The notes below the pieces were generated by a model that did not search any database, was not told the DNA's origin, and saw only the letters and a list, made by a program, of their open reading frames with translations. The translations under genes were made by a program, and so were the position numbers. Positions 1 to 7,083 of a stretch of DNA of 19,654 nt are shown in pieces (within the stretch, counting starts at the first letter, position 1; the number at the start of each line of letters is the position of its first letter). The stretch lies in contig JAZGFI010000056.1 of the NCBI GenBank assembly GCA_036479435.1, positions 1 to 19,654 of the forward strand, read 5' to 3'. The stretch comes from Planctomycetota bacterium. GTDB lineage: Bacteria > Planctomycetota > GCA-002687715 > DRQF01.

Positions 1-87
1 AACAAGACTCGCAATTCGAAGGCGCTATTCTCCGCATCAAACCTACGCCCCGCCTCTAAACCACCTTTGAGGCTCGTTGGCCTTGCC

Positions 88-131
88 TGAAGGGATGGCG
101 AGAACCAGCAGATGCGGAATCGCTGTGCCAT
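88..131 (+). promoter_or_regulatory. Candidate selenocysteine UGA plus bacterial SECIS stem-loop
   Basis: In-frame TGA 88-90. Upper stem CAGC-A-GAT (106-113) pairs with ATC-GCTG (119-125) around loop GCGGA (114-118), which starts with G 23 nt after the UGA. Lower stem ATGGC (95-99) pairs with GCCAT (127-131). Confidence 0.55.
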
Positions 132-1164
132 AGGCGCTTTGCTGGACAAATTCGTGCTTTGTCGGGTGGATGACTTGCGCGGCATTGATGTCGGGCATTA
201 TGACTTTGATTCCGATGTGACGATTTTTCTGTTTGTCGTGAATGCGGAGGAAGATATTTATCTTCGCTACGGCGGGCGGGATGATCGGTCGCCGGAGCGG
301 TTCCTTAATTTTGAGGCGCTCGATGTTGCTCTTGGTCGCGGCTTGAAGCGGCACGCACAGTGTCGAGCGGGTAAGTGGCGAGCGCCGAAGCGGAAGTCGG
401 CTTTGTTTCCTCGTGACTTTGCCGACATCAAACGCAAAGAGATTGCCGCCGGGCGCTGTGTTCATTGCCACATGCTCGGCTCCAACCGTACGCGGCAGGC
501 ACAAGAGCGCGGGAGTCTGGACAAACTCAAAGACCTTTGGGTGCTGCCCGACATTCGCAAACTTGGAATCGATGTTGATCCTAAGCACGGGCTTAAGATT
601 GCGGCGGTTGGTGGTATTGCGGAGAAGGCAGGCATCCTAGTTGGCGAGGAGATTCTCGCTTATGATGGCAAGACCGTCTTGACTCATGCCGACCTTCAAT
701 ACGGGCTCGACAAGCTTCCTCGCCAATCAAAGAGCCTTGAACTGACGATCGGCAAGGTGGGTGTACCCAAACACCGCCGGGTAAGGCTGAATCTTCCGCC
801 GCGGTGGCGGGTCACCAAAATTGGACGGCGCTCGCAGACCCATGCCTTGACGCCCTTCCCGGAGTTTTGGGCCCGGGAATTGAGTGACGGCGAACGGGAA
901 GAAGAAGGGATCGCCGCCGGAGGCATGGGAGGCCGCGTCACAAAGTTCTGGGCGAACCCGAGACTTCACGCCGCTTTTCGAAAAGGCCTGAAGAAGGGTA
1001 ACATCGTCTACTCGGTCAACGGGACTACTCGGAGTCCTTACACCACGAATCCAACGACTTGGATTCGCCTGAATTGTGAGACCGGCGACACCGTCACGAT
1101 CAAGGCGAAGCGAGGAAAGATTGAGTTGAGTTTCCGATTCAAACTGCGAGCCCGCCCCTGGTAA
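112..1164 (+). CDS. Thioredoxin-like / CxxCH / double-PDZ protein, candidate selenoprotein; true start probably upstream of 112 (TTG at 67 or outside the window) via read-through of TGA 88-90
   Basis: Translation shows LLDKFVLCRV..GIDVGHYDFDSD..IYLRYGGRD (thioredoxin-like segment), CVHCH at 457-471, and two PDZ-like segments (GIAEKAGILVGEEILAYDG; GLKKGNIVYSVNG). The same frame is open from base 1 to 87. Resembles the 'Trx7/PDZ domain-containing (seleno)protein' family from memory. Confidence 0.75.
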   Translation: MRNRCAIGALLDKFVLCRVDDLRGIDVGHYDFDSDVTIFLFVVNAEEDIYLRYGGRDDRSPERFLNFEALDVALGRGLKRHAQCRAGKWRAPKRKSALFPRDFADIKRKEIAAGRCVHCHMLGSNRTRQAQERGSLDKLKDLWVLPDIRKLGIDVDPKHGLKIAAVGGIAEKAGILVGEEILAYDGKTVLTHADLQYGLDKLPRQSKSLELTIGKVGVPKHRRVRLNLPPRWRVTKIGRRSQTHALTPFPEFWARELSDGEREEEGIAAGGMGGRVTKFWANPRLHAAFRKGLKKGNIVYSVNGTTRSPYTTNPTTWIRLNCETGDTVTIKAKRGKIELSFRFKLRARPW

Positions 1165-1192
1165 GGGTCAGAAGCGAACTGCGCCAGAGAAA

Positions 1193-1678
1193 CTAAAAAG
1201 TCGTGAGCTTAACGCCGTTGGTCAGCTCAACGTCAGTCGTGAAACTAAACGTGCTAAAAAAGCTATTGGCACCCTGCAAGTAAATGTCGACAGCGGGTTG
1301 CACCCAGGGCGGCAAGGCGACGAGGATTTCGTCGGCGGCATTGGCACCGAGAGCAACGATGAGATCGACTTGAGCCAACAGATTGCAAGTCGGTCCAAAA
1401 GCTGGCACCGGGGTGTTGGCGGCATTGTTGCCGACGATCAAAAAGCGTCCGTTACGGAAGGTGTTGCAACATGACTGCGCTGAACTCATGTTCAAAGTCA
1501 GGATGCACGTTGAGGCATCGAAACTTCCGGAGAGAGTGGGTGCGGCGAAAAAAGGCGAGCAGCCCTGCCCGTAGGCGCTGATGTTGATTCCCTGGGCGGG
1601 ACAGACGGTCACCTGTGCTGAACAAAAGGCCATCGCGATGAGGCTGCACGCGACAAATAGAATTCCAATTCGAATCAT
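1193..1678 (-). CDS. Secreted Cys-rich hypothetical protein
   Basis: ATG at 1678 with GGAG 9 nt upstream (the ORF track starts at TTG 1684). Signal-peptide-like N-terminus MIRIGILFVACSLIAMAFCSA-Q; six Cys in the mature part; YGQGC...LQG...LTNGVKL pattern. Confidence 0.7.
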   Translation of the reverse strand: MIRIGILFVACSLIAMAFCSAQVTVCPAQGINISAYGQGCSPFFAAPTLSGSFDASTCILTLNMSSAQSCCNTFRNGRFLIVGNNAANTPVPAFGPTCNLLAQVDLIVALGANAADEILVALPPWVQPAVDIYLQGANSFFSTFSFTTDVELTNGVKLTTF

Positions 1679-1791
1679 GATCAAAAACTCCAGTCGATTT
1701 GCGCTCCGACTTTGGGCATTTGCCCTGGTCTTAGATCCTCCTAAGCTTGGACGAAATCCACATCACGAGCAAGCGTTCTCTATAAATACAG

Positions 1792-2130
1792 ATGGAGCAT
1801 GAAGTACAAATGAGCACAGCAGGTCCGCAAAGCGATGCCATACGCCGGGTTCGCCACATTGGCCTCGTCGAAGGAGCTTCATTCTTGCTGCTCCTCGGCG
1901 TGGCGATGCCCCTGAAGTATGTCTGGGGTTGGCCGATGGCGGTCAAGTTCGTCGGCTGGGCTCATGGTCTGCTGTTTGTTCTATACGGCTTGGCAACCCT
2001 GCAAGCGCTGCGCGTATGCGCATGGAATTGGGGGCGTGCATTCTTGATTCTCGCGGCTTCGTTGGTTCCATTTGGACCCTTTATGATTGACCCGCGCCTG
2101 AAACGAGAAGAGCTAGCTGCCGCCAAGTGA
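1792..2130 (+). CDS. DUF3817-family small membrane protein (start may be ATG 1810)
   Basis: Three hydrophobic segments with EGASFLLLLGVAMPLKY, GWAHGLLFVLY and ASLVPFGPF, typical of DUF3817. Confidence 0.85.
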   Translation: MEHEVQMSTAGPQSDAIRRVRHIGLVEGASFLLLLGVAMPLKYVWGWPMAVKFVGWAHGLLFVLYGLATLQALRVCAWNWGRAFLILAASLVPFGPFMIDPRLKREELAAAK

Positions 2131-2353
2131 ATGTACTCGTGAAGGCGAGTTGTATAAGCGATGACAGTGAGGGTAAGGGATGTCCCGATTGACCTGATTC
2201 GCTCTATCGCGATGCGCTCCAGATGGCGATGATGCCCGCGCATGAGTCCTCGGATTCATGTCGCCGTGTGGGTGAAGTGTTGGCGCATCTTTCGCCCCGA
2301 GTTCCCGAGATCTGAAGAGTCATCAATAGGGTTTACGCCGATCGGTGACTTGT

Positions 2354-2383
2354 CCGTGGTCGCTCGCTTGCGAGCGACCACGG
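2354..2383. repeat. Perfect 14-bp inverted repeat (hairpin, possible terminator or palindromic element)
   Basis: CCGTGGTCGCTCGC-TT-GCGAGCGACCACGG. It can be enclosed by ACGCCG (2335-2340) / CGGCGT (2386-2391); a short T run lies at 2391-2394. Confidence 0.75.
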
Positions 2384-2453
2384 CACGGCGTTTTAGGCTT
2401 TGGCTCCATCGCCCCTTAGTTGGGTGATCCCGCCCACTGTCGTAGTTTGGGCT

Positions 2454-3080
2454 ATGAAATTCAGTCTCGATATCTTTCACGAGAGCCGGACCTCAAGGCA
2501 GGCTCACCTTCGCTACCCCAGCGATGGAACCGAAGCCGCCGTCTTTGCTCTTTTCAACGTCCATGCGCCGCCGACGGCTCCGGCTTACGCGACTCTCCAT
2601 GTTGTCGACCCCAAGCTTGAGATCTCAAGCCAGCTTGAAGACGTGCTGAGCGGCTTGCGCGTGCTCACCGAAGAGAGCATGAAATTCGAGATTGAGAGTT
2701 TCATCGTCTCCCAGGCCCTGGATATCGAAGCCGACCCGATAGATGACTCCGGCGAGGTCCCGAAGATACCCTTTGCGATCGAACGCCATCGCCCGAGCGG
2801 CAACTCTACCCGCGACCTAGTTTTGGACGACACCGAGGGCTCTAAAGACCAGCGCCGAATCGTCGCTATCTTTGAACGCTTCATTGAGGCCGAAGGCAGC
2901 ATGAACGTGCTGACCATTGTCGATCCGCGCTTTCACACCGAAGCCAGTGTCGACCCCTTGATGAGCATGATTGACAGCAACATCGGCGGCCCCACCAGCC
3001 CCGGCGATCACCAGCTCGACGTCATTTGCGCCAACTTCATCGGCCAGTTCGGCGCCCAGCCCACAAACCCGCAACTCTAG
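2454..3080 (+). CDS. Hypothetical acidic protein with two internally repeated domains
   Basis: 208-aa ORF from ATG 2454 (the ORF track extends to TTG 2400). Codon usage is C/G-ending like the core genes. The two halves align at an offset of about 105 aa. Confidence 0.7.
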   Translation: MKFSLDIFHESRTSRQAHLRYPSDGTEAAVFALFNVHAPPTAPAYATLHVVDPKLEISSQLEDVLSGLRVLTEESMKFEIESFIVSQALDIEADPIDDSGEVPKIPFAIERHRPSGNSTRDLVLDDTEGSKDQRRIVAIFERFIEAEGSMNVLTIVDPRFHTEASVDPLMSMIDSNIGGPTSPGDHQLDVICANFIGQFGAQPTNPQL

Positions 3081-3360
3081 CGTCAGACGCTTTTCACTAC
3101 CCTTTCAAATCCAAAGTCAGCCCTTCACCCACTCTAGCGACCGCCGGGAAGTTTTTGACACTGTACTCAAGGTCGACTCCCAAAATCCCGATGAATGCAG
3201 TGGCCTTCGGGCCGCTACAGAGGGCCTCTTGGGGGGGCCAAAGATCCGATCGGAGCGCCACGGTCACAAGTTTCTACTAAATATTGAGCGTGCAGCCGGT
3301 TAGGACGCTCTGATCGATCTTTTTACTCCTCCCAAGTCCACAGCCCTCGACCGTACAGCG

Positions 3361-3391
3361 AACCGCCACTCTTCGAAGTGGCGGTTTTTTT
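3361..3391 (+). terminator. Intrinsic terminator upstream of tonB
   Basis: AACCGCCACT-CTTCGA-AGTGGCGGTT stem-loop running into a T7 tract. Confidence 0.85.
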
Positions 3392-3437
3392 GTGCCCAGA
3401 ACCAGAACTGAGCGCTCGAGGGTGAACCTGCCGGGTT

Positions 3438-4337
3438 TTGATAACGTTTCGGCCAGAAGAAGGAGCCTTTTTGGATCAGCTCAAGCGACAAATCACTCCC
3501 TCGGCTCGCGAGGCAAAGCTCCTGGCGAGGTCAGTGACCCGTTGGCGGTTCAAGCTGCCCTTTGGCGCGTCTGTTGCGGTCCACACCTGCTTTTTAGCCG
3601 CCGTCGGCCTGGGTGCCGCTGGCGTGCTGAGTTCAGATCCGCGGGCGGACACCTCGACTCCGCTATCACTCTCCTGGGAGCTTTCGGCCCCAGCCGTCTT
3701 CGACGTCGACATCGATGAGCCGGTCGAGGAAATCAGTGAAGATTTTTTTCGCGAAGCGGAGAAGGTCTTAGTCTGGGAACCCGATTTCGAAGAGCCCGAG
3801 ATTCCAGTCTTTGCCGATGACCTCACTGAGCTTGAACGCAAGCGCACGCCCGACGGCGAGTTCAAGCCGCTGGTCAGCCGACCGGTCGAATTGCAAAGGC
3901 TGCCCGTCGAAAACACCGCGCTGACGAAGCCAACAAGGCGACCCCGTGAATCGGATTCGAAGGCAGCTACCACCATCGCCGCCCCACCCGCCGTCGTTGC
4001 CAAGAAAAAGCCACAAGTAGCGTCAGCTTCGCTGCCCACACCCCAAAAAACCGAGGAACCGGCAGCAAAAGTTGTGCTCGCCCGTCCAGAGGGAAACGAG
4101 GCGTCTCTTAGACGCCTGCGTCGTCTCGGCGCGCGACATCGTTGGCGCGGACGCGTTGTGGTCAGAGTCCGCGTCTCCGCGGAAGGAAGTGCGATCAGCG
4201 CCGTCATTGCCACATCGTCGGGCTCGAAGCGCCAAGATGAGGCCACCAAAAAAGCAGTGCTCTCTTGGGCCTTTCGTCCTGCGCAACGCGGCCAACACAC
4301 CGCGCCTTGCACCTTGGACATCCCCTTCGAGTTCTAA
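3438..4337 (+). CDS. tonB: TonB family energy transducer (start codon uncertain)
   Basis: N-terminal TM helix with SxxxH (SVAVHTCFLAAVGL), Pro/Glu/Lys-rich linker, and C-terminal TonB_C pattern GRVVVRVRVSAEG...SSGSKRQDEATKKAVLSWAFRPA...IPFEF. Confidence 0.8.
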   Translation: MITFRPEEGAFLDQLKRQITPSAREAKLLARSVTRWRFKLPFGASVAVHTCFLAAVGLGAAGVLSSDPRADTSTPLSLSWELSAPAVFDVDIDEPVEEISEDFFREAEKVLVWEPDFEEPEIPVFADDLTELERKRTPDGEFKPLVSRPVELQRLPVENTALTKPTRRPRESDSKAATTIAAPPAVVAKKKPQVASASLPTPQKTEEPAAKVVLARPEGNEASLRRLRRLGARHRWRGRVVVRVRVSAEGSAISAVIATSSGSKRQDEATKKAVLSWAFRPAQRGQHTAPCTLDIPFEF

Positions 4338-4362
4338 GTTCGCTCCTTCGCGCAGACTCGAA

Positions 4363-6552
4363 TTAGAATTTGAAATCGATGCCGATGATGAGGTTGGCTC
4401 CGGGTTCTTGCAGGCCCGAACCGTGAGTTCGGTAGTTCTTATCCAACAGATTTTCGATGGACAAAAAGACGTCGGTACCCTCGTCGATCCGGTACCCGCC
4501 TTCCAAGTTCAGCGTGATGTAACCTGGAGTACCACCGGGCGGAATCCGACTGGTATCGGCACGGTCGCGAGTGCTCAAGCGATCCTGCCGGTCTGCGGCC
4601 AAGGCCCAGGCCTTGAGGTGAAGGCGATCATCATGGGTTTTCCACCCGAGCCCTAAGGTGCCGCCCAGCGGTGGCAGGCGTGAGATGACCTCGGTTCTCG
4701 AAACCGGGTCCGAAGTCGGAAAAGTCTCGGCTTGGCCGTCGAGCCAATGAAAAGTGCCAAACACCCACCAATTGTCATCAAGGTCATAGCGCAGGCTGAG
4801 GTCAACTCCCTGCAGATGTCCGTCGCCCCCGTTTCGCTTGATCACCTCCGCTTCGCCATCAATGATGTTGCCTGTGGGCTGGCGGATAACGAGGTCATCG
4901 ATGACGGTGTAGTGGTAGGCCGCAGTACCGGTGAAGCCCCGCCAACGCAGTTTTGCGCCGAACTCAAGACTCAAAAACTTCTCGGGGTCGATGCCGGGCG
5001 AAGGGACCTCGAGCTCGCCGCTGCGCGCCGAGTCGAGTCGTGATAGGTCGGACAGATTCGGAGCTCGAAAAGCCTGCGAAACGCCGGCGTAGAGATTGAG
5101 CTCATTCGCAGCGCGCCAGTTTACACGGACCGAGCCGATGACATTCAGCCAATCATCTTCGAGCGATATCTGTCCGCCGGACAAAGGGTCTTCGACCGCA
5201 TCGGCATCCGCCGCGGCGTAGGTCAGCCGCCCGCCCACGATGAGATTCACGGTGTTGCTGATTTCGATCTCGTTCTGGGCGAAGAGACCCAAAAGGTCGT
5301 AGCTGGCGTCATCGCCGACTGGCCCCTGAATTCGAACGGTCCGTTGCCCCAAAGCGTTGGTGTCGGTTCGAAACGAGTCGACTTCGTCGTGGTAGTAGTC
5401 GACGCCATAGGTGAGACGACCAAGCGCCGTGTCTGAAACAAACTCAACGGCGACGCCAAAAGTGTCGACGTCAAACCCCAGATCGTTGACCCGTCCGTCG
5501 CCGCGGCGGCGTTTTTGACGCTCGGCGATGCGATGCCAACTTAGACGGATGTGGATCTCGTCAACGAATCCTCCGAGATTGAGATCGTACCCGTCGAGGA
5601 AGGCTGCCGCGAGATCGCGCTCCCAGTCAAAATCTCGGGAGAGATCCGAACCAATCGTCGTGCCGTGGAAAGAGACGCCGTCGACGGTTCGGTGAACGCG
5701 GTTGACGTTCGCCACCCGGCCCAGCTGCGCCAGTATCCCCAGTGACCAGTGCTCGTTGAGGTTGATGTCAAAACGGCCATCGGCGAAATAGTTGTGATAG
5801 TTCGTTGCGTCTTGACGCCCGAGATCGCCACCCGCATTGAGGTCGCTGAAAGCGCCGCCCGAGGCTCCCAACACAAAACCGAAGTCTTCGCCGATGTTCC
5901 CCGACACCTGGGCGCGGCCAGAAATGCTGTTTTCGGCACTGCTGTAGCGCAGAACAACGCGACGGTCCCAGGAGTTCTCGGGACCGTAGTCGCGGCGACG
6001 AAGGGGAATGGCATTGACCGCACCTCCGACGGCATCCGATCCGTAGAGAACGGAGCCCGGACCAAACACCGCTTCGACGCGATCGAGCGAAAACCCATCC
6101 ACGAGGCCCCAATACTCATTGGGCCCCGAGCGCAGCACTGAATTGTTCAGCCTGATCCCATCGATCATCATCAAGGTGTGATAGCCGGTGAAACCGCGCA
6201 GAAAGGGGGAAACTTGCCCGTAAGAAGTCCGCTGCAAATGGACACCGGGCAATTCCTTCAGCGAATCTTGGATCGTTCGGGCCCGGCGGAGTTTGTCTCG
6301 GCCCGTCACGGTCACGTGGAAGGGGGAGTCAAAAAGCTCTTCGTCGTGCCGAGTTGCCGTCACGACAATCGTATCGAGCGTGCCCACGACGTCGTCGACC
6401 GCCAGCTCAAGCGCCTCTTTTCTCCTCAGCTCTTCGGCTTGTTGTCGTTCCGCTTCACGGAGCCCTCTCGGGCTTCCCTGGGCTAAAATGACCGAAGCGA
6501 GGAGGAAAAAGCTGGCGATGGCGCCGAGGAGAGTCTTTGACGTATACTGCAT
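4363..6552 (-). CDS. TonB-dependent outer-membrane receptor, substrate unknown
   Basis: Signal peptide, TonB box DTIVVTA, plug motifs (LPGV, LRGF, MIDGIRLN, GPGSVLYGSDAVGGAVN), FRAP, ENLLDKNY and terminal Phe. Confidence 0.93.
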   Translation of the reverse strand: MQYTSKTLLGAIASFFLLASVILAQGSPRGLREAERQQAEELRRKEALELAVDDVVGTLDTIVVTATRHDEELFDSPFHVTVTGRDKLRRARTIQDSLKELPGVHLQRTSYGQVSPFLRGFTGYHTLMMIDGIRLNNSVLRSGPNEYWGLVDGFSLDRVEAVFGPGSVLYGSDAVGGAVNAIPLRRRDYGPENSWDRRVVLRYSSAENSISGRAQVSGNIGEDFGFVLGASGGAFSDLNAGGDLGRQDATNYHNYFADGRFDINLNEHWSLGILAQLGRVANVNRVHRTVDGVSFHGTTIGSDLSRDFDWERDLAAAFLDGYDLNLGGFVDEIHIRLSWHRIAERQKRRRGDGRVNDLGFDVDTFGVAVEFVSDTALGRLTYGVDYYHDEVDSFRTDTNALGQRTVRIQGPVGDDASYDLLGLFAQNEIEISNTVNLIVGGRLTYAAADADAVEDPLSGGQISLEDDWLNVIGSVRVNWRAANELNLYAGVSQAFRAPNLSDLSRLDSARSGELEVPSPGIDPEKFLSLEFGAKLRWRGFTGTAAYHYTVIDDLVIRQPTGNIIDGEAEVIKRNGGDGHLQGVDLSLRYDLDDNWWVFGTFHWLDGQAETFPTSDPVSRTEVISRLPPLGGTLGLGWKTHDDRLHLKAWALAADRQDRLSTRDRADTSRIPPGGTPGYITLNLEGGYRIDEGTDVFLSIENLLDKNYRTHGSGLQEPGANLIIGIDFKF

Positions 6553-6672: not shown

Positions 6673-7083
6673 TCAGCCGCAAGCGCCAAGTAGCTGTTTG
6701 ATCCGGACTTCAATGTCATCACGAGTCTCACGGAAAACGCGTCGGATTTCATCGTCTTCGCCCGAGGCATCGGCGGGATCTTCGAGATTCCAATGAATGC
6801 GGCGGATGGACTCGAGTTCCGCTGGCAGTTTCTCCTCAGCGTTGCCGCAGAGCGTGACGACGAGATCGAGGTCTGCAACCGGCACTTCGTCGAGGTCCTT
6901 TGAGTACTGCTGCCCGATCGAGACGCCGATCTCATCCATGGTTTGGGTCGTTCGCGGGTTGATCCCCTGGGGCGTAAGCCCCGCCGACCACACGCGATGG
7001 CCCGAGGCCACAAATCGGCTACCGAAGGCCTCGGCGATTTGGCTTCGGCAAGAATTACCGGTGCAGAGAAAAAGCACGTTCAC
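6673..7083 (-). CDS. arsC: ArsC-like low-molecular-weight phosphatase-fold protein (arsenate reductase family)
   Basis: P-loop CTGNSCRSQIAE, VVTLC and HWNLEDPA. GTG start with GAGGA upstream. The third catalytic Cys is replaced by Leu. Confidence 0.8.
   Translation of the reverse strand: MNVLFLCTGNSCRSQIAEAFGSRFVASGHRVWSAGLTPQGINPRTTQTMDEIGVSIGQQYSKDLDEVPVADLDLVVTLCGNAEEKLPAELESIRRIHWNLEDPADASGEDDEIRRVFRETRDDIEVRIKQLLGACG

Follow-up and report, generated by a model that had tools for sequence, protein, structure and literature searches.

The window, by which we mean the whole stretch of 19,654 nucleotides analyzed here, starts at base 1 of its contig (C56; window base 1 is C56 base 1) in the genome that we call G000. 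Its first 125 bases (1-125, plus strand) are the right end of a multicopy insertion sequence (IS), recognized from identical contig ends, from the proteins of a copy on contig C103, and from a fold search. The rest of the element is absent from C56; the window carries the right end only. This end closes with a 15-bp terminal inverted repeat (111-125, plus strand), which is conserved in metagenome relatives and whose reverse complement matches the left end of the element on contig C46 as well as 12 other left ends. An ATG within the inverted repeat (112-114) is used by gene callers as the start of a 350-aa open reading frame (ORF). Immediately after the repeat comes a 9-bp target-site duplication (126-134, plus strand), and the same 9 bases stand directly before the IS left end on C46.

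From that junction to the stop codon, positions 126-1164 (plus strand) hold the 3′ part of an IS-interrupted gene for a Trx7/PDZ domain-containing (seleno)protein, identified by searching the genome with the NCBIfam model NF041199 and by an in-frame empty site. This part encodes a CxHCH (CxxCH) motif, CVHCH (457-471, plus strand), which is found in 88 of 89 relatives and, from its sequence, is possibly a heme-c or metal site. Two PDZ domains follow, the first matching the Pfam PDZ_6 core (610-711, plus strand) and the second Pfam PDZ_2 (973-1143, plus strand).

Small exported-looking proteins without a Pfam match flank the split gene on either side (window 1193-1684, minus strand, and G000:C46:1956-2447, minus strand). 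Farther along the window, the gene for a TonB C-terminal protein converges on a 729-aa ORF that is TonB-dependent-receptor-like by eye (3438-6552), after which lies an ArsC-like gene, also recognized by eye (6673-7083).

The in-frame TGA at the contig edge

A first-pass annotation of this DNA had read the TGA at 88-90 as a selenocysteine (Sec) codon of the downstream protein, followed at once by a SECIS hairpin. Translation of the window bears out the reading frame, which is open from base 1 to the TAA at 1162-1164 with that TGA as its sole interruption, and the protein family of the claimed selenoprotein was correctly recognized (NF041199); the codon, however, was not. TGA 88-90 (plus strand) is noncoding IS DNA and is not a Sec codon. 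It occurs, together with a hairpin of −13.5 to −18.8 kcal/mol, at all 14 of the 14 places that carry the last 40 bases of the element, whatever sequence lies downstream. The TGA and its supposed SECIS are thus both part of the IS, and the predicted Sec codons lie on contig C46. The annotation expected the Sec residue to pair with a Cys of homologous sequence, but residues 1-45 of the read-through translation have no match to a profile of relatives; the true N terminus, on C46, scores 60.1 bits. The TGA does stand 16 codons upstream of LLDKF, in agreement with the C-x16-LLDxF spacing that the annotation gave for Cys-containing homologs, but its interpretation as the homologous Cys rested on a coincidence. 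At the aligned position, that of the third Cys, TGA is kept in 0 of the 75 loci that our script parsed out of 112 (37 were not parsed); 71 have TGY and 4 another codon.

The two-tier hairpin drawn at 95-131 (GCGGA loop at 114-118, stem 95-99/127-131) has a base-pair probability of 0.004 and, when forced, reaches −12.9 kcal/mol versus a minimum of −16.6 kcal/mol for region 88-140. The minimum-energy fold of that region instead places an AGAU loop at 110-113, and this alternative loop has the loose bSECIS geometry. Folding 88-140, which the annotation had proposed as a check, gives a stability not beyond chance (z = −1.30; 21 of 200 shuffles were equally stable), and an Rfam scan of window positions 1-3500 returned nothing above gathering. 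On the drawn-fold probability, the equally stable shuffles, and the lack of resemblance to the hairpin of the family described below, we rejected this hairpin as a SECIS.

The genome has the Sec machinery that the annotation had proposed to look for: selC, selA, selB, and selD are all present above model cutoffs. SelD itself has an in-frame TGA. The selA gene, selD (in-frame TGA plus downstream hairpin), and the tRNA-Sec gene are clustered at G000:C117:33648-36236 (minus strand), and selB is on C237.

The two halves of the gene and the empty site

The 5′ part of the gene, with a signal-like peptide, a UxxUxxC motif, and a SECIS, lies at G000:C46:1830-1610 (minus strand) and was located by the NF041199 search and by the junction sequence. 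Read through the TGA, the window scores 297 bits against NF041199, for which the cutoff is 300. In the profile search of the genome, C56:106-1143 covers profile positions 39-389 (293.4 bits), and C46:1618-1752 (minus strand) covers positions 2-46 (40.6 bits) with two in-frame TGA codons. A tblastn search with the first 45 residues of homologs did not find the 5′ half, and a pairwise comparison (P0006) was uninformative, because database proteins are truncated after the UGA.

The C46 reading frame encodes a signal-like peptide (by eye), a Trx-like start, and then R-U-I-P-U-K-P-C, whereupon it enters the IS left inverted repeat and terminates at a stop 9 codons inside the IS. A redox motif following a signal-like peptide is therefore found on C46 (UxxUxxC) and is absent from the window's own upstream frame. 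The IS cuts the gene downstream of the redox-motif codons, separating them from those for the remainder of the protein and leaving a 3′ piece that has neither export signal nor redox motif and is free of stops or frameshifts. When the C46 and C56 flanks are joined by script, the resulting empty site is 1251 nt long and in frame, with 416 codons of which only codons 52 and 55 are TGA. Scored on our own profile of relatives, not on the curated NF041199 model, this joined allele reaches 350.9 bits, compared with 281.8 for the read-through and 277.2 for the 3′ part alone.

No second NF041199 member was found by profile search in the genome, which is 92% complete. Six of eight genomes of the same taxonomic family have an NF041199 match, and in the parsed loci of those six the genes are uninterrupted except for one partial paralog. 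The split gene is probably inactivated. From the sequence, we infer what would be a recent null mutation, and the in-frame 3′ piece would still be intact because the event is recent, as the identical IS ends suggest.

Selenocysteine codons and hairpins of the family

Members of NF041199 occur in 100 of the 301 genomes of our phylum sample. Among the 109 matches listed above the cutoff, a hand count gave 54 with two TGA codons, 33 with one, and 22 with none; TAA or TAG was present in none. Hairpins were analyzed at 112 loci, a set deliberately enriched for two-TGA matches (51 of 60 regions in one batch); subtracting 22 unparsed loci and 1 duplicate leaves 53 UxxU, 23 CxxU, and 13 CxxC genes. 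A hairpin was counted as significant at p ≤ 0.05 against synonymous-codon shuffles.

A distal hairpin whose loop lies 25-26 nt beyond the second redox codon passes in 44/53 UxxU, 20/23 CxxU, and 2/13 CxxC genes and is the SECIS of the family. In the C46 gene, its AGUU loop follows the second TGA by 25 nt and the first by 34 nt (−6.6 kcal/mol, p = 0.03). Both distances lie within the range of 16-37 nt after the UGA that PMC13188914 gives for the bSECIS model; therefore, one SECIS could serve both codons. A proximal hairpin lies directly after the second UGA, its loop about 16 nt beyond the first UGA; it passes in 32/53 UxxU genes and in 0/23 CxxU and 0/13 CxxC genes. It has no single fixed register, the best register pairing in 27-34 of the 53 genes per position. 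When both redox positions are masked, UxxU and CxxU members are interspersed on a tree built from 87 of the 89 proteins. In 19 of 22 greedy pairs, the stabler proximal hairpin belongs to the UxxU partner, and so it does in 5 of the 7 closest; distant pairs are not independent contrasts. The proximal hairpin of the C46 gene is weak (−1.0 kcal/mol, p = 0.64), and we therefore do not claim two SECIS elements for this allele.

The two TGA codons on C46 (codons 52 and 55) occupy the first and second positions of the motif, where relatives have TGA/Cys pairs. They are the predicted Sec codons of this allele.

Two further observations concern Sec codons elsewhere. An NF041199 match in another genome (G160:C148:7958-8860, locus L134) has three in-frame TGA codons. 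In G000 itself, an exported-looking thioredoxin-like gene (C274:4790-4948, minus strand) has an in-frame TGA in a VPGUxTC motif and resembles the VPGUxxT family, NF041383, that is tabulated in PMC13188914.

The insertion sequence

Eleven other contigs carry, at 12 of their ends, sequence 100% identical to bases 1-125 (over 124-126 nt), and the internal copy in C103 is 99.2% identical. This C103 copy, about 1.95 kb long, has genes for a DUF6788 protein and a DDE_Tnp_1 transposase, both recognized by searching with its proteins; it is a complete variant copy and is without a target-site duplication. In the genome as a whole, the 9-bp duplication assigns a left-end partner to 10 of 17 right ends, C56 with C46 among them, and 7 of 17 are unpaired. 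Repeat contigs have about 20 times (run X2, which may be the source sample) and 15 times (run X3) the depth of a unique contig, a depth that is not a strict copy number. With terminal inverted repeats, a target duplication, a DDE transposase, and multiple copies, the element is a DDE insertion sequence.

Elements in other genomes of the phylum have transposases of 39-70% identity, and two complete ones carry 9-bp duplications. Related proteins number 2,083 at E ≤ 1e-10, a plasmid search gave only six distant matches (24-28% identity), and a scan of genome contigs gave one locus. A DUF6788-like cysteine motif lies upstream in 73 of 80 metagenome loci.

Shorter or diverged variants of the IS end with the same inverted repeat occur on C68, C21, C152, and C263 of G000. 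C68 shares only the last 61 bases of the end and C21 only 43, and these are possibly nonautonomous or related elements. At L155:958-967 (G237:C372), 9 bp separate a right-end-like inverted repeat of the IS family from an adjoining left-end-like one, an arrangement like that of a tandem dimer or circle junction. The G000 assembly is also broken at contig ends by another repeat family, different from this one (C103:224534-224672 and the ends of C280, C241, C164, C148, C298, and C137).

The predicted model of the transposase has a pLDDT of 91.9, and its best fold match is the Tn5 transposase (E = 9e-11, TM = 0.56); the Mutator-type ISCth4 structure was matched only weakly (E = 0.019). A PDB sequence search with the transposase alignment gave no real match. 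No NCBIfam family model scored above its cutoff; five IS4-superfamily models were far below, the best being ISAs1 (32 versus 70 bits), and no ISLre2 or ISKra4 model was among the NCBIfam matches. The family may already have a name in ISfinder, for example within the ISNCY/ISDol1 group. Our literature search found no publications on DUF6788.

Insertion at a constant spacing from promoters

Within the L-D-K codons of the interrupted gene lies TGGACA (143-148, plus strand), a −35-like hexamer at an offset of 17 bp from the IS, where most copies have a sigma70 −35 box. A consensus promoter scan of window positions 1-400 found none, and TGGACA 143-148 is not followed by a good −10 box. Most other insertion sites in the genome are upstream of an ORF. 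TTGACA with at most one mismatch is present at offset 17 or 18 in 9/17 right flanks (background, 0.008), and a looser −35 rule or TAnnnT at 39-41 is satisfied in 14/17 right versus 0/13 left flanks (background, 0.025).

These offsets were chosen after the data had been inspected, and hence an independent metagenome set was tested, for which 80 loci were kept out of at least 196 confirmed. By a −35 or a −10 box, 28/39 unique right flanks carry the signature versus 2/49 left flanks. Right flanks (n = 39) have TTG at offset 17 in 22 cases, a near-perfect −35 in 13, and a −10 in 25; TTG is found in at most 3 right flanks at any offset other than 17, and left flanks have no peak. The 9-bp duplication is seen in only 2 of the 31 metagenome loci with both flanks, probably the result of short-read contigs joining flanks of different copies. 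Elements in the other genomes of the phylum, at the 39-70% transposase identity noted above, have the same promoter offsets. Statistically, then, insertions of the element family place the right end 17-18 bp upstream of −35 boxes of the sigma70 type.

An unlikely alternative, confined to the targeting, is that insertion is random or follows DNA shape or sequence and that purifying selection leaves the copies near promoters. ISs in general are enriched between genes, according to bioRxiv 10.1101/2025.07.22.666184, and the signature is missing from 3/17 right ends in G000 and 11/39 metagenome right flanks. However, selection would not be expected to produce a fixed offset and orientation such as the one-sided TTG peak, and sites with a poor −35 keep TAnnnT at 39-41, which fits recognition of a whole promoter complex better than recognition of one hexamer. 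Because a poor −35 goes with a good −10 at the right distance, a bound holoenzyme is favored over direct reading of the hexamer, and it is rather likely, on these flanking sequences, that promoter-bound RNA polymerase holoenzyme positions the transpososome. G000 contains 1,642 TGGACA sites, and the one at 143-148 lacks a −10; therefore, the hexamer alone fails to explain the choice of this site. We infer that the insertion in the window was a mistargeting to a −35 look-alike, TGGACA, in coding DNA.

At L154:1601-2054 (G177:C117), an element has inserted 17 bp upstream of the promoter in front of another DUF6788-like ORF, and copies may in this way stack in front of the promoters of other mobile elements.

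Origin and fate of the split gene

The reading that we hold with high confidence is that a recently expanded IS split the sole NF041199 Trx7/PDZ selenoprotein gene of the genome with a 9-bp duplication and that TGA 88-90 is IS DNA. In the mechanism that we propose, promoter-bound RNA polymerase holoenzyme would position the transpososome, and TGGACA in coding DNA would have been mistaken for a promoter −35, leading to insertion inside a gene. The IS would have entered between the redox-motif codons and the rest of the gene, duplicating 9 bp, and the assembler would then have collapsed the repeat, placing the 5′ part on C46 and the 3′ part on C56 behind 125 bp of IS end. The gene would now be null, its 5′ piece stopping in the IS and its 3′ piece being without export signal and redox motif. 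The product of the intact allele would have been a thiol/selenol oxidoreductase destined for export, with a UxxU site able to form a diselenide, a CxxCH site, and two PDZ domains whose role is probably substrate selection.

It is quite improbable, if the insertion is real, that the 3′ piece is expressed from the inverted-repeat ATG and serves, in a residual or new role, as a cytoplasmic CxxCH/PDZ protein of 350 aa. The ATG (112-114) shares its frame with a 3′ part that has kept its reading frame, but we see no convincing ribosome-binding site before position 112 (by eye) and no consensus promoter in positions 1-400, the thioredoxin-like domain is severed behind its first strand and active-site motif, and the recency of the event accounts for the intact frame.

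Still less probable is that the join between IS and gene is a chimera of the assembly, or an allele of minor frequency, and that most cells have an intact UxxUxxC gene. The assembly is of metagenome type, with 299 contigs broken at the repeat, and contigs drop rare variants. No single contig examined spans the whole element at the site, a point against the insertion model, and none formally bridges the junction: in runs X2 and X3, which cover it (X7 and X9 do not), the long contigs carry 29 bases on the IS side, and the bridging criterion is 31. The uninterrupted genes of the six genomes of the same family, the partial paralog excepted, could also be taken in this sense. Against it, the two junctions have the same 9-bp duplication, a match also seen at nine further sites; among the loose ends listed for the four runs at 126-134 (all but three of the total), a place covered by X2 and X3, none leads toward C46 sequence; and the ORF that begins with the IS-derived Met is recorded from 4 contigs, of which the longest has 3,989,566 bp.

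Finally, decoding of TGA 88-90 as Sec is barely credible even in its surviving form, in which the IS end supplies a chimeric Sec-containing N terminus: the frame open upstream to the contig end, the spacing alignment with the third Cys, the AGAU loop (G second) inside the 16-37 nt bSECIS range of PMC13188914, and the Sec machinery of the host are set against a mobile-element end at 14 unrelated sites, folding no better than shuffles, a lack of family similarity upstream of the junction, the 0/75 relatives with TGA at the third position, and the predicted Sec codons with their SECIS on C46; as native gene structure, it is refuted.

Insertion of the IS into the NF041199 gene thus stands as our explanation, and it matters in several ways. 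For annotation, an IS end at a contig edge can fake a UGA and hairpin before a genuine selenoprotein-family gene. For transposon biology, the recurrence of the 17-bp geometry in a second transposase superfamily suggests that the two converged on a fixed holoenzyme surface, and the IS offers a compact two-gene system for testing promoter-anchored insertion. For recoding, the natural CxxC, CxxU, and UxxU alleles of NF041199, with and without a second hairpin, make two-Sec decoding directly testable. In sum, the locus is an IS-disrupted two-Sec allele of an already known selenoprotein family, and the IS that broke it targets promoters and has a transposase from a superfamily for which we found no such report. 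More broadly, we lean slightly toward a picture in which the element would represent an undescribed, widespread IS family with a Tn5-like fold and DUF6788 that independently evolved 17-bp sigma70 targeting by docking on RNA polymerase, and in which the UxxU of the victim family would be decoded with two tandem SECIS elements, one per UGA.

Comparison with known systems

Like the IS4 superfamily (IS50/Tn5, ISAs1, IS701, ISH3, and IS1380), the element combines an RNase H-like DDE fold and a beta-rich insertion with terminal inverted repeats and a 9-bp duplication; the target duplication of Tn5 is likewise 9 bp. Unlike the named families of that superfamily (ISAs1, IS701, IS4, IS1380, and ISH3), it scores below the NCBIfam cutoffs. 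We found no report in the literature of fixed-distance promoter targeting for IS4-superfamily families, nor any description of targeting by this element family (ISfinder, most subscription journals, and supplements were outside coverage).

In its mode of insertion, the element resembles Mutator-like elements. According to Guerillot et al. (PMC3942029), ISLre2/TnGBS (p-MULT 3) and ISKra4 (p-MULT 4) elements insert in one orientation, 15-17 bp upstream of promoters of the sigmaA type, and contact with the RNA polymerase initiation complex is put forward there as a proposal. As in TnGBS/ISLre2 and ISKra4, the right inverted repeat lies at a fixed distance before the −35 of sigmaA/sigma70 promoters, 15-17 bp in those elements and 17-18 bp here. 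Unlike them, our element has a DDE_Tnp_1 transposase with a Tn5-like fold accompanied by a DUF6788 ORF, and it does not have the Mutator-type (p-MULT) transposase. It works like a Mutator-like promoter-targeting IS but is not a member of that group, and in the literature that we searched, such promoter targeting is described only for Mutator-like elements.

The interrupted gene shares with NF041199 the Trx-like domain, the CxxCH, the two PDZ domains, the UGA-encoded Sec in the first CxxC-like motif, and the SECIS 25-26 nt after the second redox codon. In the table of PMC13188914, NF041199 is a CxxU family with one Sec and is credited to PMC2398784, in which a CxxU family appears under the name "putative secreted serine protease MucD." Unlike the family as so reviewed, this allele has UxxUxxC, as do about half of its relatives, and the copy is split by an IS. 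No description of tandem bacterial SECIS elements for UxxU was found in the literature searched, coverage of which did not extend to supplements and most subscription journals. The nearest parallel is with the group 4 [NiFeSe] hydrogenases, where a single bacterial redox motif likewise contains a pair of UGA codons at a distance of three codons; for their UxxU, it has been suggested that a single downstream SECIS may serve both codons (PMC13582414). Unlike in that proposal, most UxxU genes of NF041199 have an extra, proximal hairpin, and the CxxU genes are without it.
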